Positions 5,081 to 34,680 of a stretch of DNA of 36,000 bases are shown one piece after another (positions within the stretch are counted from its first letter, which is position 1; every line of letters begins with the position of its first letter). The translations under genes were made by a program, and so were the position numbers. The notes under the pieces were generated by a model. That model saw only the letters and a program-made list of their open reading frames with translations, had not been told where the DNA came from and ran no database searches. Where the stretch lies: the NCBI GenBank assembly GCA_964441745.1, contig CAYTYR010000017.1, positions 1 to 36,000 of the forward strand, written 5' to 3'. Source of the stretch: an uncultured Clostridia bacterium. Lineage in GTDB: Bacteria; CAYTYR01; UBA6262.

Positions 5081-5638
5081 TTACGTACTCATTTGTTCAT
5101 TTAATGTGATCTGGTCCTGCTGGTCTAGTTCCTTGAAATTTACGCTGATCATTTCGGTTTTTGCAGTTTTGAATACCTTGCCGCAAAAATCAGCCTGGAT
5201 CGGCAATTCCCTGTGGCCGCGGTCAACCAGGACGGCCAGTTGGATACTTTTTGGCCGCCCGAAGTCAATGATCTCATCTAAGGCTGCCCTGATGGTCCGC
5301 CCGGTGAATAACACGTCATCAACCAGGATAATGTTCTTCTCTTCTATATGAAATGGTATCTGGGTTTCTTTCACCAGCGGCATCTCAGACAGGCTGGTAA
5401 AATCATCCCGGTATAAGGTTATATCCAGGACCCCGATCGGAATGGTCTTACGGGATATTTTCTTAATTTCCGCAGCCAGGCGTTCAGCCAGGAAGACTCC
5501 CCTGGTCCTGATCCCGATGATGACCAGATCTTTAGTGCCATGATTCTTTTCGATTATTTCCATCGCTAACCGTTTGATCGTAATATTAATTTCATTCTTG
5601 CTCATGATCACTTTTTTAGTTTGATAGCTGTTAGTCAT
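5081..5638 (-). CDS. pyrR: Pyrimidine regulatory protein / uracil phosphoribosyltransferase PyrR
   Basis: [41 protein letters not shown]. Confidence 0.96.
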
Positions 5639-6099
5639 TTCTTGCTCCCGGCCGCCAGCTTTTGCTTAAAGGCTTTTAGCTTATTATTTAATACTGGCTC
5701 ATTAACGGCTAATATCTGGCAGGCTAAGATAGCCGCATTTTTAGCCCCATTGATCGCTACGGTAGCTACAGGCACGCCATTGGGCATTTGCACAATTGAC
5801 AAGAGAGAATCCAATCCTGCCAAATCTTTGGTATTGATCGGCACTCCAATGACCGGCAGCTGGGTATAAGCGGCAATCACTCCTGGCAGATGTGCTGCTT
5901 TGCCAGCACCGGCAATGATCACCTTGAAACCATTTTTCTCAGCAGCGCTTGAAAACTGTGCGACTGGCTTTGGAGTTCTGTGAGCGGACATGATCTTTAG
6001 CTTATAAGGGATACCGAATTCTTTTAACATCTTTGCTGCCTCGGTCATTATTCCCAGGTCTGATTCACTGCCCATAATTATTGCTACCTTATACTTCAT
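5635..6099 (-). CDS. purE: N5-carboxyaminoimidazole ribonucleotide mutase
   Basis: [35 protein letters not shown]. Confidence 0.97.
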
Positions 6100-6117
6100 T
6101 GCTGATCTCCAAGTTTT

Positions 6118-6294
6118 AAATTCTAATATCTAATATCGAAATACTAAACAAGACCTAAACTCCAAATTCAAATTTCTAAACTTCGTGCTATTTATATTTT
6201 GAACATTAGATATTGTTTACCTGTCCCCGCGTCTTTGATTTGTACCTTAGTACAAATCAGCAGGGGAGATTTTAGATATTCGGATTTCGTATTT
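6118..6294. repeat. Imperfect palindrome built of degenerate heptamers (AAATTCT/AATATCT/AAATACT...TAAACAA), family shared with 21396-21525 and 25249-25283
   Basis: Left arm aaattctaatatctaatatcgaaatactaaacaa; right arm attagatattgttta...ttagatattcggatttcgtattt is its approximate reverse complement. Confidence 0.75.
6220..6266 (+). repeat. CCTG-footed hairpin mini-element (REP-like) nested in the palindrome
   Basis: CCTG-t-CCCC...TGATTTGTAC-ctta-GTACAAATCA...GGGG; perfect 10-bp inner stem. Confidence 0.6.
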
Positions 6295-6295
6295 G

Positions 6296-7624
6296 CTATA
6301 AGCCTCTTCGTCCTATATCTTTTCGCCACTGGGCACCTTCAAATTTGATCAAAGGTACTGCGGCATAAGAATTATCGATCGCCTCTTGCAGGGTTTCCCC
6401 TGTCGCTGTTACTCCTAAAACCCTTCCTCCTGAAGTGACTATACGGGAACGATCATACTCGACGAGCCCTTCGGCTGTTTCTTTTTGCGGAAAAGCCGTC
6501 CCGGCATGAAAAACCGTGACCTCACTCAAAGCCTCAGCCTGTTCCAATCCGGTTAATATCTTACCCTTGCTGAAACCTCCCGGATAACCCATGCTGGCCA
6601 TAATTACGCAAACGCAATGTTTCTGTTCCCATTCGATCTTAAGATCTTTTAATTTACCCAGATTGATATACTCAATAATTTTTAAAATATCTGTTTTTAA
6701 AAGAGGCATAATAACTTGTGTTTCAGGGTCCCCAAATCTAACATTGTATTCTAACACAAAAGGGTCGCCTTTGACAATCATTATTCCTGCGTAAATCACT
6801 CCGCGGTAGACTATTTTTTCCTGTTTTAGGCCGGCAATGGTCGGCAACAATACTTTTTCCCTTATTTTCCGGTGCAGTTCATCATTCAGTTTGGTAACCG
6901 GAGCATAACATCCCATCCCGCCGGTATTTGGACCCTGATCATCGTCGTAGATCCTTTTATGATCCTGCACCGGGACCATCGGCACAATGGTTTCACCATC
7001 GGTAAAACAGAGAATGGAAGCTTCTTCTCCGCCGATAAATTCCTCGATCACCAGCTTATCACCGGCAGTCCCAAATACCTTTTTCAACATGATCACATCA
7101 ACTGCCTTTTCTGCTTCGGCCAAGGTATGGCAGATCATCACCCCTTTCCCTGCCGCCAGTCCGTCTGCCTTGATCACGATAGGATAGCCGGATGGGCTAT
7201 GAGCATTACTGAATTTAGGGTTTTTGATGAAATCAAGGGCTTGCTTGGGCGAGGTGAATATTTCAAAACCAGCGGTAGGTATGCCGCATTTCTGCATGAA
7301 AGTCTTGGCAAAAGCTTTACTGCCTTCCAATTGGGAGGCTAGCTTATTGGGTCCAAATACTTTAAAACTTCTTTTTTCAAAATAATCAACAAAACCTTTA
7401 ACCAGCGGAACTTCCGGTCCGACAATGATCAAGCCAATATTATTGCTCTTGCAGTATTTTTCAATATAGGGAAAATCATCAACTGGTTTATCACTACATT
7501 TGGCGAGCTGGGAGATCCCGGCATTACCGGGAATACAAAATATTTCAGTGGTGGCCGAACTTTGCTTTAATTTCCAGATTAAAGCGTGTTCCCTTCCTCC
7601 ACCGCCGATCACCAGAATGTTCAT
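6296..7624 (-). CDS. purD: Phosphoribosylamine--glycine ligase
   Basis: GGGGREHAL, PGNAG, VGPEVPL, LEGSK, KADGLAAGKGV, QDHKR, GPNTGGMG, EYNVRFGDPE, SGGRVL. Confidence 0.97.
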   Translation of the reverse strand: MNILVIGGGGREHALIWKLKQSSATTEIFCIPGNAGISQLAKCSDKPVDDFPYIEKYCKSNNIGLIIVGPEVPLVKGFVDYFEKRSFKVFGPNKLASQLEGSKAFAKTFMQKCGIPTAGFEIFTSPKQALDFIKNPKFSNAHSPSGYPIVIKADGLAAGKGVMICHTLAEAEKAVDVIMLKKVFGTAGDKLVIEEFIGGEEASILCFTDGETIVPMVPVQDHKRIYDDDQGPNTGGMGCYAPVTKLNDELHRKIREKVLLPTIAGLKQEKIVYRGVIYAGIMIVKGDPFVLEYNVRFGDPETQVIMPLLKTDILKIIEYINLGKLKDLKIEWEQKHCVCVIMASMGYPGGFSKGKILTGLEQAEALSEVTVFHAGTAFPQKETAEGLVEYDRSRIVTSGGRVLGVTATGETLQEAIDNSYAAVPLIKFEGAQWRKDIGRRGL

Positions 7625-7649
7625 TATTGTCTCCTTGCCATAAAGCTGC

Positions 7650-7737
7650 GAGTTTCGGGTTCCGAGTTTCGAGTTTAGGTATAATACTTTTTATATCAAC
7701 AATAATTATTATTAACCCGCAACCTGAAACTAGTAAC
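7650..7737. repeat. Heptamer-repeat palindrome (GAGTTTC)n ... (AACYNGN)n
   Basis: gagtttc gggttcc gagtttc gagttta (7650-7677) and inverted aacccgc aacctga aactagt (7714-7734) in the purF-purD spacer. Confidence 0.65.
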
Positions 7738-7742
7738 ATCTT

Positions 7743-9098
7743 TTATTTAATTGGGTATTCATCAGTAAAACAAGCGCAGCAAAAATTAGCTGCCGAAACT
7801 TTAGTCGCTTTCAGCAATCCGGCCATGCTTAAATAATGCAGGCTGTCTACTCCTAAATATTCTTTTATTTGCTTAACAGAGTAGTTACTGGCAATTAATT
7901 CTTTTTTATCCGGGGTATCAATACCGTAAAAACAAGGACCAATTATAGGTGGGGAACTGATGCAGAGATGAATCTCTTTAGCGCCGGCCGCGTAAAGCAT
8001 TTTAACCAGTTTTTTGGAAGTTGTTCCTCTGACTATTGAGTCATCGATCACAATAACTTTTTTATTTTTCAGAACTTCCCGGATCGGGTTGTATTTAATC
8101 TTAGCGCCAAAATCACGAATTTGCTGATCAGGTTCAATAAAGGTCCGGCCAATGTAATGATTGCGGATCAGGCCGGTTTCAAACGGGATACCAGACTCTT
8201 CAGCAAAACCGACCGCCGCGCTGTTAGCGCTATCAGGAACCGGAATGACCAGGTCTGCCTTGAGCTTGGTTTCCCGGGCTAACTGCTTTCCGTATTCCCG
8301 ACGGACCATATGCACATTGCGTCCAAAAATATAGCTATCGGGACGGCTAAAATAGATAAATTCAAAAATGCACATCGCTGATAATTTTTCTTGGGCAAAC
8401 TTCACGCTTTTCAGGCCTTTTGCAGTGATGGTCAGGAGTTCCCCCGGCTCAACATCACGAATATACTTGGCATTGATCAGGTCCAGAGCGCAAGTCTCAC
8501 TGGCGACGACATAAGCATCCCCTAATTTGCCCAGGCACAGTGGCCTGACGCCAAAGGGATCACGGACAGCAAACAATGTATTTGGAGTGCTGATCAACAA
8601 AGAATATGCGCCTTTAACCTGCCGCAATGATTTAATAATAGCTTCTTCCAGTGGTACGCCATTGGCTTTAGCGATAAGATGCAGTATGACTTCAGTATCA
8701 CTGGTGCTTTGGAAAATTGAGCCTTCTTTCTCCAGGCGGGTCCTGATCATATCAGTGTTTATCAAATTACCATTATGGGCAATAGCCATTTGGCCCTTAG
8801 CGTATTTGATCAACAGCGGTTGCGCGTTTATTAGGAAACTCATTCCAGTCGTGGAATAACGGTTATGTCCAATCGCCAGGTGTCCCGGCAATTTATCGAG
8901 AGTATCACGATTAAAAATATCAGATACCAGGCCCATACCTAGATGAGGATACATCTGCTGGCCGTCTCCGGTGACGATACCAGCTGATTCTTGGCCCCGA
9001 TGCTGCAGTGAATATAAACCAAGATAAGTAAGACGGGCTGCTTCATGATGCCCGAATATTCCGAACACTCCACATTTTTCATTTAATGTTTTAAACAT
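7743..9098 (-). CDS. purF: Amidophosphoribosyltransferase
   Basis: Propeptide then CGVFG, QHRGQESAG, RYSTTG, HNGNL, SDTE, CIFEFIYFSRPDS, DDSIVRGTT, Fe-S Cys CFYGID/CCACF. Confidence 0.97.
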   Translation of the reverse strand: MFKTLNEKCGVFGIFGHHEAARLTYLGLYSLQHRGQESAGIVTGDGQQMYPHLGMGLVSDIFNRDTLDKLPGHLAIGHNRYSTTGMSFLINAQPLLIKYAKGQMAIAHNGNLINTDMIRTRLEKEGSIFQSTSDTEVILHLIAKANGVPLEEAIIKSLRQVKGAYSLLISTPNTLFAVRDPFGVRPLCLGKLGDAYVVASETCALDLINAKYIRDVEPGELLTITAKGLKSVKFAQEKLSAMCIFEFIYFSRPDSYIFGRNVHMVRREYGKQLARETKLKADLVIPVPDSANSAAVGFAEESGIPFETGLIRNHYIGRTFIEPDQQIRDFGAKIKYNPIREVLKNKKVIVIDDSIVRGTTSKKLVKMLYAAGAKEIHLCISSPPIIGPCFYGIDTPDKKELIASNYSVKQIKEYLGVDSLHYLSMAGLLKATKVSAANFCCACFTDEYPIK

Positions 9099-9113
9099 GT
9101 CTAACCTCTAGTT

Positions 9114-9170
9114 TAGTGATAAGTGGTATAGTGGTAAAGTGGTATAGGGCAAAACAAAACTCTATCACTA
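9114..9170. repeat. Octamer tandem repeat (AGTGGTAW)x3 with short inverted end
   Basis: agtggtat agtggtaa agtggtat at 9122-9145; tagtgata at left mirrored by tatcacta at right. Confidence 0.6.
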
Positions 9171-9962
9171 TTTTACGAAGTTCACGGCGTTAATGAATAT
9201 TACCAATCCATCGCCTTCCTCAGGTAGTTTTATTCTGGTCCATTGAGGATGATTATATTTAGTTACATGCCGTTCGGGATGAGGCATCAAGCCAAAAATA
9301 TTCCCCGCCGGATTACAAATGCCGGCAATATTTTCAACTGAGCCGTTTGGGTTAGAGGGATAGCCGGCCATTTTCCCTTTTTCATCTACATATTGCAATA
9401 CTATCTGTCCATTTTTCTTTAGCTGCTTGAGAACTTCCTCATCCTTGGGAATGAATTTCCCTTCCCCATGCGCCACCGGTAAATAAATAGTTTTTTTGAT
9501 CCCCTTTGTCCATAAACACTTGTCGCGCGTCGCGCGTCGCGCGTCGCGCGCAAGATAAACCCAGCGGTCTTCAAACTTGGCTGAATCATTGAAACTGAGC
9601 GTAGCCTGTAATTCCTGGTCGATGGTTTCAAATCCAGGCAGGATCCCTGATTTTACTAATACCTGAAAGCCGTTACAGATGCCAATGACTGGTTTGCCGC
9701 TTTCGGCAAAAGACCTGATCTGGTCATATAATTTATAGCGTAATTCATTAGCCAATACTTTGCCGCTGGCTATATCATCGCCGTAGGAAAAGCCGCCAGG
9801 GATCGCCAGGATGCCATAATCACTTAATTTTACCTGTCCGTCGATGAACCTGTTAATGTGTACCCTTTCCGGTTCTCCGCCTGCCAGGCTGAAAGCCTGC
9901 GCTGTTTCCACGTCGCAATTAGTCCCGGCAGTTCTTAATATGAGTACTTTAGGTTTGTTCAT
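9168..9962 (-). CDS. purQ: Phosphoribosylformylglycinamidine synthase, glutaminase subunit
   Basis: GTNCD, PGGFSYGD, GICNGFQ, AHGEG, NPNGS, MPHPER. Confidence 0.96.
   Translation of the reverse strand: MNKPKVLILRTAGTNCDVETAQAFSLAGGEPERVHINRFIDGQVKLSDYGILAIPGGFSYGDDIASGKVLANELRYKLYDQIRSFAESGKPVIGICNGFQVLVKSGILPGFETIDQELQATLSFNDSAKFEDRWVYLARDARRATRDKCLWTKGIKKTIYLPVAHGEGKFIPKDEEVLKQLKKNGQIVLQYVDEKGKMAGYPSNPNGSVENIAGICNPAGNIFGLMPHPERHVTKYNHPQWTRIKLPEEGDGLVIFINAVNFVK
9522..9549. repeat. Perfect heptamer tandem repeat (GTCGCGC)x4 inside purQ
   Basis: gtcgcgc x4 read directly; encodes ARDARRATRD. Confidence 0.9.
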
Positions 9963-9992
9963 GATTTATCTGTGTAATCTCGCTTTCTAATC

Positions 9993-10014
9993 CCTGCCCC
10001 GATGCCCATCGGGG
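9993..10014 (+). repeat. CCTG-footed hairpin mini-element (REP-like)
   Basis: CCTG-CCCCGATG-cc-CATCGGGG, perfect 8-bp stem, within a (TGTAATC)-type repeat tract. Confidence 0.65.
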
Positions 10015-10033
10015 TGAATGTAATCGTACTTAA

Positions 10034-12466
10034 TTACCATCTGAGAGTACCCTGCCAGGCTTCTTTGAGCGCGGCAATATTTTCTTTTAGGATAATCGTA
10101 TTCTTTAATCCTTTAACAACGAAATTCTTTTCAGATTTTATCTTGCCGAGACAAATAAAACCTGACCCCATCATTGCTTTTTCAAACGCTTTAGCTTTCT
10201 TTGGTTCCACTTCTACCAAGAATCGCGAATTACTTTCAGAAAACAAGATAGTTGTATCATTCTTATCTTTATCTGCTATCGGCCATCGGCCATCGGCTAA
10301 CCGGATTTCCATCCCCAATCCTCCCGCCAAAGCCATCTCCGCCGCAGCTACGGCTAAACCGCCTTCACTGAGATCATGACAAGAGCATACCAGTTTCTGA
10401 GAGATAGCTTGGCTTAGAGAGATCATCAATGCCCTGGCTTTTATAAAATCAACCTTGGGAACAGTATGGCCAAGATTGTTGGACAGGGCCAGATATTGAG
10501 ACCCTCCCATTTCATTATACGTATCCCCTAACAGGTACACCAGATTACCGCTTTCTTTAGCATCCATGGTCACGCAATTCCGCACATCATTAAGCACGGA
10601 AATAGCAGAAATAAGCATGGTCGGAGCGATGGAGATAGATTTCCCTTTAAGTGAATATTCATTGTTTAGACTGTCTTTACCGCTGATAAAAGGCGTGCCA
10701 TAGGCCATAGCGGCATCATAACAGGCCTTGGCTGCCCTGACAATACCACCCAGTTGTTCTTCTTTGTTGGGATTACCCCAGCAGAAATTATCCAGCAAGG
10801 CAGTTTTTTGCAGGTTCCCGCCAACACAGGTAATATTGCGTAAAGCTTCGTCAATGACGCTGGCTGTCATCCAATATGGGTCGATCAATCCGTAGCGGGG
10901 ATTAATCCCATTAGCTACGGCAAATCCCTGCCAGGAATTAAGGTCTGGCCTGTTGACAGCAGCATCGCTTGGACCATCATTATCAATACCGGTCAAAGGC
11001 TTGATGATACTGCCGCCTTGTACTTCATGGTCATATTGCCTGATGATCCATTCTTTGCTCGCTACCGTCGGCAAGGCAAGAATTTCTTTTAAAGTCTTAC
11101 CAAAATCCTTGCTGTTAACTACCGTCCGCTGCCTGCCCGCCGAAGTTTTAGTGGCGGGACCGCCGTCCGCTGACTTTGGTTCCTTCCAGACCGCTTTTCG
11201 TGTATATTTCGGAACGCCATCATGCAAAAACTGCATCTCCAGGTCAGCAACCTGGTCAGAGCCATAATAAAGTTCTAAACGATGATTATTGGTGAATTCA
11301 CCGATAACTGTGGCTTCCACATTTTCACTGGAAAATATCTTTAAAATTGCCGCTATTTTATCTGGCGGTACCGCCAGCACCATTCTTTCCTGCGATTCAC
11401 TGACCCATATTTCCCAAGGCAGCAGGCCCTGATATTTTAAGGGGGCTTTATCCAGGTAGACTTTAGCGCCGCCTTCTTCTCCCAGTTCTCCCACGGCTGA
11501 AGAAAATCCACCGGCTCCGCAATCAGTGCAGGCATTATAAAGTCCCGCGTCACGGGCCTGCAGTAAAGTATCAGTTACCTTCTTTTCTATGATCGGATTG
11601 CCGATCTGCACGGCGGATATTTCCGTATCTTTATCCAATTCGATTGAAGAAAAAGTAGCTCCATGGATTCCATCCCGGCCGGTTCTTCCTCCCACCGCTA
11701 ACACCAGGTCTCCTGGATATACTTTTTTTTCTATGTGTTTCTTAGGCATTATGCCGACTGTCCCGCAAAACACCAAAGGATTATAAATAAAGTCTTCGGC
11801 AAAAACCACCGCGCCGTTAGCCGTCGGGATACCCATCCGGTTACCGTAGTCACGGACGCCAGACACTACTCCTTTGGCAATTCTTTTAGGATGCAAAATG
11901 TGCTCACTAATACTTTTGAAGGAAGTGTCCGGGGGACCAAAGCAAAATACATCAGTATTCATAACCGGCTTAGCGCCCAATCCTACCCCTAAGATGTCAC
12001 GAATTACTCCGCCAATACCAGTACCTGCTCCACCGTATGGCTCTAACGCTGAAGGATGATTATGGGTTTCCACTTTGAAGGCCAAGGCATTGTCCTGATC
12101 GAAATCAATGACCCCGGCATTATCCTTAAAGACTGAAAGACACCACGGCAGATTCAATTCTTTAGTCGCTTTCATCACGGTTTGTTTCAATAAATTGTCT
12201 ATTTTTTCTGTCCGCTGACTGCCGTCCGCTGACCGCTGACTATACTCAATTATTCCCCGCAGGGTCTTATGTTTGCAGTGTTCGCTCCAGGTCTGGGCCA
12301 ATGTTTCCAGCTCCACATCAGTTGGGTCCCGTTGCAGCTTCTGGAAATATGCCTGGATAGTCTTCATTTCCTGGATGTTTAAAGCCAGCAGATTAGCTGT
12401 AGAAATGGTCAGGAGTTCGCCATCTGTCTTCTTTAATATTTCGATAATTTTAACATTGCTATTCAT
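10034..12466 (-). CDS. purL: Phosphoribosylformylglycinamidine synthase subunit PurL
   Basis: QTWSEHCKHK, KVETHNHPS, GGVIRD, DCGAGG, SESQERM, QYDHEV, SGKDSL, HDLSEGG; ATG 12466 preferred over TTG 12484. Confidence 0.96.
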   Translation of the reverse strand: MNSNVKIIEILKKTDGELLTISTANLLALNIQEMKTIQAYFQKLQRDPTDVELETLAQTWSEHCKHKTLRGIIEYSQRSADGSQRTEKIDNLLKQTVMKATKELNLPWCLSVFKDNAGVIDFDQDNALAFKVETHNHPSALEPYGGAGTGIGGVIRDILGVGLGAKPVMNTDVFCFGPPDTSFKSISEHILHPKRIAKGVVSGVRDYGNRMGIPTANGAVVFAEDFIYNPLVFCGTVGIMPKKHIEKKVYPGDLVLAVGGRTGRDGIHGATFSSIELDKDTEISAVQIGNPIIEKKVTDTLLQARDAGLYNACTDCGAGGFSSAVGELGEEGGAKVYLDKAPLKYQGLLPWEIWVSESQERMVLAVPPDKIAAILKIFSSENVEATVIGEFTNNHRLELYYGSDQVADLEMQFLHDGVPKYTRKAVWKEPKSADGGPATKTSAGRQRTVVNSKDFGKTLKEILALPTVASKEWIIRQYDHEVQGGSIIKPLTGIDNDGPSDAAVNRPDLNSWQGFAVANGINPRYGLIDPYWMTASVIDEALRNITCVGGNLQKTALLDNFCWGNPNKEEQLGGIVRAAKACYDAAMAYGTPFISGKDSLNNEYSLKGKSISIAPTMLISAISVLNDVRNCVTMDAKESGNLVYLLGDTYNEMGGSQYLALSNNLGHTVPKVDFIKARALMISLSQAISQKLVCSCHDLSEGGLAVAAAEMALAGGLGMEIRLADGRWPIADKDKNDTTILFSESNSRFLVEVEPKKAKAFEKAMMGSGFICLGKIKSEKNFVVKGLKNTIILKENIAALKEAWQGTLRW
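10271..10298. repeat. Heptamer tandem repeat (ATCGGCC)n inside purL
   Basis: atctgct atcggcc atcggcc atcggct; encodes ADGRWPIAD. Confidence 0.8.
11132..11158 (+). repeat. 27-nt CCTG-footed hairpin inserted in frame in purL, inside a (CCGCTGA)-type repeat tract
   Basis: CCTG-CCCGCC-gaagttttagt-GGCGGG flanked by ccgtccgctg and accgccgtccgctgac. Confidence 0.7.
12210..12240. repeat. Heptamer tract (CCGCTGA)n inside purL
   Basis: gtccgctgactgccgtccgctgaccgctgac; encodes SQRSADGSQRT. Confidence 0.8.
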
Positions 12467-13076
12467 ATTTTTCAGCAGCTCCAATAAAATAATCCTGTAC
12501 GATATTATTAGCTAACAGCTTGGAAGCAATGGCTTCTGCTTCTTTTGCTTGAATTTTGCCGTAGACAATATACTTGGCTCCGGTGTGCACGGTGATCTGT
12601 TCCGGCTGCAAACCAAGATCCCTGACCCCGGTAATCACGGTATCAGCAACCGCGTCGGTGACCCCTTTTTTAAACCATACTTCAATCACAAAGTGTTTTT
12701 CACTGGCCGCACCGTCGATAGTCTTATTAATGACATATTCCTGGGTGATCGGGTCGATCAGTAATTTACAGCAAAGGTTATCGATTTGGGCAAAATTTAA
12801 GCCGGCGTCTATTTTATAAATCTGCACCGACTTAATTTTAGAAACCTTGCTTATCCCCAGGTCGTGAATATCCTTATTGATACTTTCTCCCAGGGCATCA
12901 AGGATATTATCCTTATAGCCAATTTCTATGACATATTGCTTTATACCCATACTCCGAGATTGGATTGCGGGATCTGACAAAAAACTCCTGCAATCTTTCG
13001 TCGAAAATGTCTCAACCGTACTTTTCAAGTACGCTTTCATCATTTTCGGCAAAATATTATTGGATTTTTTCTTCAT
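12459..13076 (-). CDS. purS: Tandem double-PurS protein (FGAM synthase accessory subunit); start is either 13076 or 12950
   Basis: Two PurS-like repeats: IEIGYKDNILDALG...LLIDPITQEY and IEVWFKKGVTDAVA...LLANNIVQDY; located between purC and purL. Confidence 0.8.
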   Translation of the reverse strand: MKKKSNNILPKMMKAYLKSTVETFSTKDCRSFLSDPAIQSRSMGIKQYVIEIGYKDNILDALGESINKDIHDLGISKVSKIKSVQIYKIDAGLNFAQIDNLCCKLLIDPITQEYVINKTIDGAASEKHFVIEVWFKKGVTDAVADTVITGVRDLGLQPEQITVHTGAKYIVYGKIQAKEAEAIASKLLANNIVQDYFIGAAEKYE

Positions 13077-13101
13077 ATCCTCACAACCAATCTCGGAGTA
13101 T
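12949..13101. mobile_element. 153-bp MITE-like palindromic element with perfect 15-bp terminal inverted repeats
   Basis: ATACTCCGAGATTGG (12949-12963) / CCAATCTCGGAGTAT (13087-13101); imperfect pairing continues inward to a central CGTACTT..AAGTACG hairpin. Confidence 0.7.
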
Positions 13102-13104
13102 AGG

Positions 13105-13989
13105 TTAGAGTCCTTTTCCAGTCAGTAATTTATGCGCGGTCAGGTATTTTAGCCTGGTTTTCGCTACAATATCAGCAGGCAGGGTTGGCACCGGCGGCTG
13201 TTTGTTCCATTTGATATGTTCCAGGTAATCACGGATAAACTGCTTATCGTAGCTGGCTTGCGGCGCTCCCGGCTTATAGCTGCTGACCGCCCAAAACCGC
13301 GAGGAATCAGGAGTAAAAATCTCATCAATCAGGATCATCTTATTGTTCAGTAAACCAAACTCAAATTTGGTATCGGCTAAGATGATGCCCTTGCTTCTGG
13401 CATACTCACTGGCTTTTTTATAGATGGCCAGGCTTTTAGTTTTTAGCTCTGCGGCCAGGGCGGCGCCGACTAGTCTCTCAACTTCAGCCATGGTGATATT
13501 CTCGTCATGCAGTCCCTGTTCGGCCTTACTGGAAGGAGTAAATACATCGTTCGGCAGTTTGTCTCCCTCCACTAATCCCGGAGGGAATTTAAGGCCGCAG
13601 ATAGACTGGGTTTTCTGATAATCTTTCAGGCCGCTGCCAGCCAGATATCCCCTGACCACGCATTCTACATCCAGGCGCCGGGCTTTTTTGACCAGCATGC
13701 TGCGGCCAGCCAGGATTTCCCGGTAAGCCTGCAGATTGACTGGATATTTAGCTATATCGGTAGTGATCACATGATTTGGGATGAGGTCTTTGGTCAGGTC
13801 AAAAAAAAAGCTGCTGATCTGAGTGAGTATGCGGCCTTTATCAGGTATAGGAGTAGGCAAGACAAAATCAAAAGCGCTGACGCGGTCAGTGGCCACGATC
13901 AGCAATTCCTGGCCCAAGTCGTAAACATCACGTACTTTGCCTCTGGTCAGTAACGGATATTCTTTTATATTCGTCTCTGTGACGATCAT
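13105..13989 (-). CDS. purC: Phosphoribosylaminoimidazole-succinocarboxamide synthase
   Basis: GKVRDVY, TDRVSAFD, ECVVRGYLAGSG, ADTKFEFG, DEIFTPDSSRFW, DKQFIRD. Confidence 0.97.
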   Translation of the reverse strand: MIVTETNIKEYPLLTRGKVRDVYDLGQELLIVATDRVSAFDFVLPTPIPDKGRILTQISSFFFDLTKDLIPNHVITTDIAKYPVNLQAYREILAGRSMLVKKARRLDVECVVRGYLAGSGLKDYQKTQSICGLKFPPGLVEGDKLPNDVFTPSSKAEQGLHDENITMAEVERLVGAALAAELKTKSLAIYKKASEYARSKGIILADTKFEFGLLNNKMILIDEIFTPDSSRFWAVSSYKPGAPQASYDKQFIRDYLEHIKWNKQPPVPTLPADIVAKTRLKYLTAHKLLTGKGL

Positions 13990-21365: not shown

Positions 21366-21395
21366 ATTAACTTAACCTCCGTTAGTTTTAATAAT

Positions 21396-21525
21396 AATTT
21401 CTAAGCACTAATATCTAATTTCTAAACAATTTCAAAATATTAAATTCTAATGACCAAAACGTTTTAAAATTTGGATTTATACAATTCGATATTGTTTAGA
21501 GCTTGGGATTTCGAATTTGGAATTT
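21396..21525. repeat. Heptamer-built palindrome, same family as 6118-6294
   Basis: aatttctaagcactaatatctaatttctaaacaat...attgtttagagcttgggatttcgaatttggaattt; TCTAAACAAT/ATTGTTTAGA perfect 10-bp inverted pair. Confidence 0.75.
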
Positions 21526-21530
21526 GACTC

Positions 21531-29735: not shown

Positions 29736-29756
29736 TCCTTATTTTTTTGCCTATCA

Positions 29757-29862
29757 AGTAAGTTGTTAGGTTAGGAAGTAAGCTTGGTCTGAGGTCTATG
29801 GGTGTTAGGCTTTAAACCAATAACTTTAGACTTACTTCCATACCTACTTCTACACCCAATAC
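29757..29862. repeat. Degenerate ~6-nt-periodic palindromic tract
   Basis: taggttaggaagtaag..ggtctgaggtct..gggtgt versus agacttacttccatacctacttctacaccc; GGAAGTAAG/CTTACTTCC perfect pair. Confidence 0.55.
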
Positions 29863-29875
29863 CAAAAATCCAGTT

Positions 29876-34557: not shown

Positions 34558-34680
34558 TGCGTTGTTCTTGTAGTAATAACCAACTGTGAATTTCGCAAGT
34601 TGACAGTTGGGTTAAAGTAAGCTGAATGTCCCTGATTTTGCCACCTTCAATGCGGGTTTGAAGGTGGCACAAGTAAATGT

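Follow-up and report, generated by a model that had tools for sequence, protein, structure and literature searches.

What are the short hairpins with a 5′ CCTG at their foot that punctuate the purine operon of an uncultured groundwater bacterium, and do they move? The stretch of DNA analysed here, hereafter the window, comprises 36,000 nucleotides (contig CAYTYR010000017.1 of assembly GCA_964441745.1). It is contig C17 of a 39-contig, 2.07-Mb genome (G000; 44.6% G+C, 98% complete), whose relatives are labelled Elusimicrobia bacterium UBA6262; UBA6262 also serves as a placeholder phylum name in the available part of PMC11484514. Six relatives or congeners (G001-G006) were compared with it. A preliminary description, made from the letters of the window alone, had noticed three such hairpins and read them as a CCTG-type family resembling repetitive extragenic palindromes (REPs). 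Our results suggest that these features are probably mobile mini-elements.

Three hairpins in the purine operon

The operon lies on the minus strand at 5635-13989 and comprises purE, purD, purF, purQ, purL, purS and purC (Pfam assignments). It holds the three elements within two spacers and one open reading frame (ORF):

6220-6267, plus strand: element 1, 48 nt, family E, CCTG TCCCCGC followed by an inner hairpin and GCAGGGGA; purD-purE spacer
9993-10014, plus strand: element 2, 22 nt, family D, CCTG CCCCGAT gccc ATCGGGG; purL-purQ spacer
11132-11158, plus strand: element 3, 27 nt, family C2, CCTG CCCGCC N11 GGCGGG; within the purL ORF

All three are in the places first given for them, except that element 1 ends one base further on. 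Their interiors had been called unrelated; since the 5′ arms share CCTG-YCC, they are not, and only the loops and inner stems differ. In comparisons with 200 shuffles each, element 1 has a predicted fold of -13.7 kcal/mol (z -5.8, with none of the shuffles as good), element 2 of -7.1 kcal/mol (z -3.2) and element 3 of -7.2 kcal/mol (z -2.95). An identical 48-mer of element 1 is found at C10:3043, and a near-identical second copy of element 2, with the same flanks, at C33:2110.

The elements lie in or near the following tracts, to which no strand is assigned:

6100-6295: purD-purE spacer, heptamer-type arrays in inverted orientation around element 1
9963-10033: purL-purQ spacer module, in minus-strand order GATTACA-type units, hairpin, CAGG GATTA..GATTACACAGATAAATC
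11104-11180: 14-mer (2 x 7) tandem tract split by element 3, a hypervariable PurL linker
12208-12240: uninterrupted period-7 tract of the CTGACCG type in purL, 4.7 copies by Tandem Repeats Finder (TRF), encoding QRSADGSQRTE

The purL ORF (10034-12484, minus strand by Pfam) thus contains both element 3 and the uninterrupted tract. Element 3 is antisense to purL and contributes to the encoded peptide ...GGPATKTSAGRQ.... When it is deleted, TACCGTCCGCTGAC meets CGCCGTCCGCTGAC in a tandem of two 14-mers that agree at 12 of 14 bases, which bears out the claim that its removal restores a tract like that at 12208-12240. Element 1 is flanked on both sides by heptamer-type arrays, with TRF reporting period 7 at 6122-6137 and a fold of 6150-6295 at z -3.4. 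Element 2 lies between GTAATC/TAATC units (9974, 9988 and 10020), with no plain tandem tract. The purQ ATG that follows the 71-nt module has no visible ribosome-binding site (GATAAATCATG).

Intrinsic terminators were considered and rejected. A scan of 5900-12600 for them lists none of the three hairpins, whichever strand is taken; one row of the scan (11152-11172, plus strand) overlaps element 3 but represents a different pairing, antisense to purL.

Hairpin families and their CCTG feet

The preliminary description implied that CCTG should be enriched at hairpin feet across the genome. Among all 15,962 perfect hairpins with stems of at least 6 bp it is not special (252 versus 198.8 expected, rank 9 of 256), nor is it at stems of at least 7 (58 versus 57.6 expected) or at least 8 (22 versus 18.5 expected). 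At GC-closed hairpins (n = 1,623) it ranks first of 256 tetranucleotides, with 85 of 3246 feet versus 20.2 expected; GC-closed means that G/C accounts for 5 or more of the 6 outer pairs, a definition taken from the preliminary description, although the restriction was imposed after the first test. Five genomes simulated with a third-order Markov model gave 19, 30, 17, 17 and 20. The enrichment therefore holds for GC-closed hairpins and not for hairpins in general, and given the 85 feet against 20.2 expected and 17-30 simulated, chance is rejected as the origin of the CCTG hairpins.

Five families account for 64 of the 85 feet, the remaining 21 being singletons at chance level:

Family A: CCTG TCCGCC tcw GGCGGA; 17 copies
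Family B: CCTG CCTGCC ggca GGCAGG; 23 feet at ~15 loci
Family C2: CCTG CCCGCC N GGCGGG; 13 copies, 10 of them exactly 27 nt
Family D: CCTG CCCCGAT gycc ATCGGGG; 2 copies
Family H: CCTG TCCCCC..; 9 copies

Family E, to which element 1 belongs, adds 21 copies; its stem is bulged and thus falls outside the count of 85 feet. Five of its 16 consensus pairs show changes on both sides, and pairing is lost in only 3 of 256 pair cells. The 20 nt of family B form a perfect palindrome. When we checked for doublets of the REPIN kind, the doublets F and G proved to be direct neighbours and not inverted pairs, and family B a lone palindrome.

The families also differ in where they sit. By a crude ORF call, 7 of the 13 C2 copies lie inside ORFs of at least 100 codons, and families A, D and E are mostly intergenic. 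AATC precedes 15 of the 17 family A copies in G000, and family C2 follows (C/G)TG in a fixed heptamer phase. Of 26 co-oriented spacers, 21 have families E/H in antisense (p 0.0025); C2 is antisense in 11 of 13 (p 0.02), and 18 of 24 cases of family C1 are on the C-rich strand (p 0.02). Rfam searches of 12 short loci and 10 genome stretches returned tRNAs and weak chance rows only, leaving the hairpins uncovered by any RNA family.

Filled and empty sites among relatives

Copy numbers vary strongly from genome to genome, with a reversed-pattern control of 0 in every one of them:

Family E: G000 21, G001 9, G002 11, G003 6, G004 4, G005 25, G006 0
Family A: G000 17, G001 4, G002 1, G003 10, G004 4, G005 1, G006 0
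Family C2: G000 13, G001 7, G002 2, G003 3, G004 4, G005 3, G006 1

Many of the E copies in G005 are identical and of a variant that is rare in G000. At single loci, the 20-mer CCTGCCTACCGACAAGCAGG is present in G002, with an exact empty site in G004 (GCTAT|CATTCG); a 19-mer between GATTACA units is filled in G003 and empty in G005; and a 30-nt double hairpin within the ATCAACA array of purL is filled in G003 (locus L002) and empty in G005 (L004). In the ORF at C2:53211-56048 on contig C2, the first site with a family C2 copy measures 107 nt in G000 versus 80 nt in three relatives, and at the second such site five relatives have 77-103 nt and no hairpin. In purL as in this ORF, the G000 sequence exceeds that of relatives by exactly 27 nt. 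No target-site duplication was seen at the filled and empty pairs compared among congeners, as had been claimed. Miniature inverted-repeat transposable elements, with terminal inverted repeats and a target-site duplication, were rejected, there being no duplication at the empty sites. The copies fall into families, their pairing is conserved, filled and empty alleles match exactly, and bursts of copies are specific to lineages.

The window elements themselves are variable. None of the six relatives has element 3; in G002 the site carries the same type of heptamer but is shorter by 27 nt (93 versus 120 nt). Element 1 is missing from all four relatives with anchors, where unrelated arrays are found. 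The purD-purE spacer of G002 equals the last 55 nt of the G000 spacer with one mismatch and lacks 141 nt, that is, element 1 and 93 bases. The purL-purQ spacer is 71 nt in G000 and 65 nt in G004, where the same module carries a different hairpin (TCCGCCAGAGGCGGACAGG); in G001, G002, G003 and G006 it measures 1-5 nt, so that the module is dispensable there, and it is missing from 4 of the 5 relatives that keep purQ beside purL. In public contigs from four runs, depth climbs from ~12 to 92 at 6124-6347 and element 1 coincides with contig breaks, the behaviour expected of repeats; 11126-11163 is all that other public contigs share. Elements 1 and 3 thus show themselves as repeats.

Period-7 arrays and nesting

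Period-7 arrays are abundant in this genome. TRF lists 365 period-7 rows (292 merged arrays) among 1,261 rows, versus 49 in a simulated genome. By the crude call, 176 arrays are intergenic, though ORFs make up 90% of the genome; 78 of the 292 lie inside ORFs, 49 of these more than 90 nt from either ORF end, and encode 7-residue periodic peptides such as QRSADGS, SGQRSAV and ADGRWQM. Further arrays in the window are the following, again with no strand assigned:

7649-7676: CGAGTTT array (TRF), forming one arm of an inverted pair; purF-purD spacer
9522-9550: GTCGCGC x 4.1 in the purQ ORF (9168-9962), TRF 100% matches, encoding ARDARRATRD
10278-10297: ATCGGCC x 2.9 in purL (TRF), encoding LADGRWPIAD

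Spacer arrays are often inverted pairs around an AT-rich centre (7625-7742, 6100-6295 and 21366-21530), which allows the spacer to form a long imperfect hairpin. The folds reach only z -1.5 to -3.4, and the layout is kept in relatives with other units; the purF-purD spacer has the weakest value (z -1.5), and its counterparts measure 8-136 nt and consist of other units. At one site in the purL linker (loci L002-L007), a period-7 array of differing unit is seen in each of the six relatives (ATCAACA, CAGATGG, GCGAGTC, GCCATAA or GTCAGCG), with the same total length of 102 nt in 4 of 6, and their arrays also differ at the purL site matching the tract 12208-12240. The linker array is rewritten, and not merely lengthened or shortened.

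All three elements had been thought to interrupt short-period tracts. When the elements are deleted, period-7 identity over the junction is 0.48 for C2, 0.49 for E/H and 0.65 for doublet G, compared with 0.31 at random spacer positions and 0.22-0.30 for families A, B, C1 and D. The claim fits elements 1 and 3, whereas element 2 lies outside any plain tandem tract. The setting of families A, B, C1 and D is instead one of AATC[TG]GTGTAATC units, the commonest 12-14-mers of the genome. A strict search for interrupted period-7/14 arrays found 13 gaps, of which 3 are hairpin elements, a criterion too strict to count nesting.

Elsewhere in the window, the spacer at 29736-29875 contains an inverted pair built from another dispersed repeat (..GTAGAAGTAGGTATGGAAGTAAG.. 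with its complement), whose core 16-mer has ~30 copies. This is no CRISPR array.

A 19-mer shared across phyla and partial tRNA copies

The exact 23-mer AATCCCTGTCCGCCTCWGGCGGA occurs at 24 loci in a collection of species genomes. At 16 of them it has GTAATC flanks as in G000, in metagenome-assembled genomes (MAGs) labelled Elusimicrobia bacterium UBA6262, 'uncultured Clostridia' or STB_115/132, and two of these loci are orthologous to G000 loci. The remaining loci have unrelated flanks and come from MAGs labelled Dojka-, Woese-, Doudna- and Buchananbacteria, Paceibacterota, Gammaproteobacteria and Bdellovibrionales. Among 401 genomes sampled from the phylum of one such MAG, the 19-mer CCTGTCCGCCTCTGGCGGA is present in 32, nested in tandem arrays or in the loops of partial tRNA copies. 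This occurrence of one 19-mer across phyla was unexpected. Copies of CCTGTCCGCCNNNGGCGGA number up to 32 per genome, then 9 and 6, and the reversed control was found in 0 of 401. In the 32-copy genome the 19-mer splits short-period arrays of different sequence, for example AAGTAACT|..|AAGTAACT and GGTTCTAGG|..|TTCTAGG. The four bases before it in another phylum's genome are AACT in 13 of 30 cases and ATAG in 6 of 30, the rest being others. A 56-nt stretch with family A gave only chance-level matches against 72,556 plasmids, whatever the host.

At four loci in three other-phylum genomes (L061, L062, L064 and L066) the 19-mer lies between the TTC and GA of a T-loop, in partial 3′ tRNA copies directly downstream of an intact tRNA. 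G000 has a comparable arrangement, with partial 5′ copies of tRNA-Arg (39 nt) and tRNA-Thr directly upstream of the intact genes:

G000:C1:256480-256680 (L162 980-1180): partial tRNA-Arg copy
G000:C2:61580-61715 (L166): partial tRNA-Thr copy

In both, a double hairpin of 30 nt (TCAGCC..GGCTGA TCCGCC..GGCGGA) separates AGTT from GG in the D-loop. In the unrelated genome G015 (L187, G015:C41), a partial tRNA-Ser copy carries three hairpins, in the D-loop, in the anticodon loop and at one further site. These cases suggest a preference or tolerance for single-stranded loops as targets.

Paralogous conserved stretches of ~200 nt were also seen upstream of tRNA genes (L163 700-960 in G000:C5 and L164 660-930 in G000:C2). 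Each contains one C2 hairpin, with differing loops, and neither has an Rfam match.

Candidate nucleases in the genome

No nuclease gene lies in the window, in agreement with the preliminary description. Nine Y1_Tnp matches were found at 8 places in the genome, in ORFs of 217-331 codons, including 7-8 genes resembling REP-associated tyrosine transposases (RAYTs):

C8:5396-6343
C1:182.9 kb and 186.8 kb
C22:25815-26810
C6:4808-5533 (minus strand)
C8:48198-48851

The gene at C8:5396-6343 passes the NCBIfam model NF047646 (REP-associated tyrosine transposase) with 87.8 bits versus a cut-off of 80, and two further ORFs score 65-67 bits. By eye, the Y1 ORFs contain H-x-H (for example NHYHLL) and a tyrosine in RY(I/V)HLNP. 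Two kinds of RAYT-like gene are present: one of ~315 codons, whose C-terminal part is DnaA-like, and one of ~217-241 codons that lacks this part. Each gene has inverted repeats of its own on either side; TTTCACGATTCAGTGCCTGACCCCRTTG, one of these repeats, is seen in about a dozen of the rows listed. The flanks also hold CCTGACCCC, which has a short likeness to the CCTG-YCCCC elements, and one C2 copy shares TCAGTGCCTG; as a link between RAYT genes and CCTG elements, this likeness may serve as a lead only. An IS200-type tnpA remnant with stops lies at C1:53369-53725, adjoined by other hairpins. Neither an RVT_1 domain nor a TnpB zinc-ribbon domain was found in the genome. In the other phylum, 25 of 32 carriers of the 19-mer have a Y1 match versus 161 of 369 non-carriers (odds ratio 4.6, Fisher p 1.7e-4, uncorrected for kinship and genome size).

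A palindrome in the window at 34580-34610, CCAACTGTCAACTTGCGAAATTCACAGTTGG, resembles the hairpin directly downstream of the RAYT-like gene on C6.

How the hairpins might move

The signature of HUH nucleases, as in the REP/RAYT and IS200/IS605 systems, is a hairpin whose 5′ foot carries a constant tetranucleotide, together with the lack of a target duplication, and the elements are built in this way. In the model that we propose, the three window features would be copies of families E, D and C2 of one superfamily of non-autonomous hairpins of 19-50 nt. Each copy would consist of a 5′ CCTG and, directly after it, a GC-closed hairpin with YCC at its start and GGR at its end, or, read on the other strand, of a hairpin and then CAGG. 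Copies would be pasted without target duplication into tolerant DNA such as period-7 arrays and GTAATC-type spacer units, and further into permissive protein linkers, the loops of partial tRNA copies and one another; the 27-nt length would keep the reading frame in protein linkers. A trans-acting nuclease may recognise foot and hairpin on single-stranded DNA; the only candidates found for it are the RAYT-like Y1 (HUH) proteins, whose genes lie elsewhere in the genome. The whole statement, that these are mobile mini-hairpins moved in trans by a Y1 HUH nuclease, is held tentatively, at somewhat less than an even chance.

A number of observations weigh against HUH mobilisation or against mobility itself, and the first four account for this tentative rating. 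The Y1 genes go with other repeats. Family A is found on either strand without bias (8 of 15). The elements consist of one hairpin each, with no left and right ends. The strand bias of the other families is not separable from transcription direction and could equally reflect transcription. RAYT or Y1 genes flanked by the CCTG motif had been anticipated; no CCTG hairpin was found in the ~220-nt flanks on each side of all 8 Y1 places, where the repeats read belong to different types (TTTCACGATTCAGTGCCTGACCCCRTTG, TGACCCCATTGTTTA and further palindromes), and three Y1 genes read in other-phylum genomes likewise have no such flank. Of the 32 carriers of the 19-mer, seven lack a Y1 match, and two of these seven hold 3 copies each. 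The CCTG foot is absent from other small hairpin families (C1 and doublets F and G), and only 17 of 143 matches to the TCCGCC hairpin (strand-wise) have it. Precise empty alleles exist among relatives for other family copies, as had been predicted, and for none of the three window copies: a PurL-based metagenome scan found only relatives of at most 62% identity and no strain-level alleles, and so no window copy has an exact empty allele of its own. The public contigs of the four runs contain no clean excision joint. Two features that define REP/RAYT systems, a REP-flanked nuclease gene and an extragenic location, fail here. What survives of the proposal of a CCTG-type REP-like family moved by an HUH nuclease is the existence of CCTG families, their insertion without target-site duplication and with exact empty alleles in congeners, and their nesting in short-period tracts; the HUH reading is supported only in part, CCTG is not universal, sister families having another foot or none, the hairpin is single, and copies also lie in ORFs.

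The hairpins may instead be mobile by non-HUH means, through an unrecognised enzyme or a replication or repair route into single-stranded loops and slipped repeats. Such a route would suit the elements in the D-, anticodon- and T-loops of partial tRNA copies in G000, G015 and the other phylum, the RAYT-like genes without flanking CCTG elements, the seven carriers without a Y1 match and the identity of the 19-mer in very distant genomes. However, no candidate enzyme was found for it, reverse transcriptase and TnpB included, and the build of foot and hairpin without target duplication is that of HUH systems; we consider this explanation rather unlikely. It appears improbable that the hairpins are selected RNA or DNA signals (mRNA stabilisers, processing or protein-binding sites) that were spread by recombination and kept by selection. 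Their pairing is retained via compensatory change, families E/H and C2 are mostly antisense with the mRNA carrying hairpin-CAGG, and copies are located between operon genes, all of which a signal could explain. Yet none of the three is terminator-like, family A comes in both orientations, copies lie inside ORFs, and the 19-mer is identical across phyla in unrelated contexts. Moreover, four relatives do with a purL-purQ spacer of 1-5 nt, and the insertion parts purQ from the end of purL without a visible ribosome-binding site.

Slippage or fold-back synthesis during array formation might also create hairpins on the spot, as local by-products. The tight association with arrays in two phyla, the 7-fold over-representation of period-7 arrays (365 versus 49 TRF rows) and the perfect palindrome of family B, as fold-back synthesis would yield, speak for such an origin. 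It fails to explain why identical 19-48-mers occur in arrays of differing units at unrelated loci, with a hairpin sequence unrelated to the surrounding units, and why families A, B, C1 and D have no period-7 junction; the catalogue also leans to new copies matching distant copies and not their own flanks. We regard a local origin as very improbable.

For the mobile hairpins, a broader proposal can be made, to be taken with considerable reserve. The 19-nt unit (CCTG foot, 6-bp stem, 3-nt loop) and its relatives may be mobile DNA at the lower size limit, spreading within genomes and between distant phyla into single-stranded loops or slipped tandem repeats, including tRNA-like hairpin loops and protein linkers, and the period-7 arrays may belong to the process and not be passive landing pads.

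Relation to known repeats

Elhai et al. reportedly described in 2008, in Genome Res 18:1484, small dispersed repeats (SDR4-6) and heptameric short tandem repeat (STRR) arrays in Nostoc and other cyanobacteria. These appear to be the closest description of our elements: hairpin-formers of ~20-30 nt (here 19-50 nt), nested in heptamer repeats and in one another, with mobility judged from insertion differences, an unknown transposase and heptamer arrays also in genes. The likeness is one of described features. The host lineage differs, and in our case a CCTG foot joins several families and one 19-mer crosses phyla. IS200/IS605 ends and miniatures share a hairpin with guide bases at its foot, the lack of target duplication, a strand bias in some families and perhaps a preferred adjoining sequence (here the AATC before family A in G000); they differ in that our elements are one 19-50 nt hairpin with no distinct ends, no autonomous tnpA copy and no TnpB. 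Rickettsia palindromic elements are selfish palindromic repeats that sit in frame in genes and add peptides at tolerant sites, at ~100-150 bp, whereas the coding copies here are 27 nt and lie in pre-existing heptamer tracts.

REP/REPIN repeats and their RAYTs, as presented in the available part of PMC3116915, resemble our elements in the short GC-rich palindrome, the conserved 5′ tetranucleotide, the lack of target duplication and the presence of RAYT-like genes. In contrast, the RAYT-like genes here have other flanking repeats, many copies lie in ORFs and are not extragenic, copies number tens and not hundreds, the doublets found are direct neighbours, and there are 7-8 Y1 genes and not one. 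Heptamer repeats are over-represented in bacteria and turn over rapidly, for example GGGNATC in Xanthomonas and Nostoc, according to the accessible part of PMC4692102. The intergenic period-7 arrays described there vary in length and sequence among close relatives, as ours do, and slippage is proposed; that part of PMC4692102 describes no nested hairpins or in-ORF arrays, and here the unit differs wholly between congeners at one site. Literature titles and abstract openings yielded nothing describing such elements outside cyanobacteria or for UBA6262, which is no proof of absence.

Together, our results confirm that the observation is real, and richer than the preliminary description: the hairpins are SDR- or REP-like mini-repeats, with the Y1 proteins as candidate mobilising enzymes. 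Since the substrate is defined and the list of Y1 candidates short, the way in which such tiny repeats move is directly testable. The same 19-mer in at least two phyla points to a shared or transferable mobilising activity. For annotation, arrays and hairpins account for odd low-complexity inserts in the conserved proteins of these lineages. If mobile, units of 19-27 nt would be among the smallest known. They would then be reshaping the compact genomes of uncultured bacteria, breaking assemblies at repeats, lengthening operon spacers, as where purQ is parted from purL, and adding peptide segments to enzymes such as PurL.

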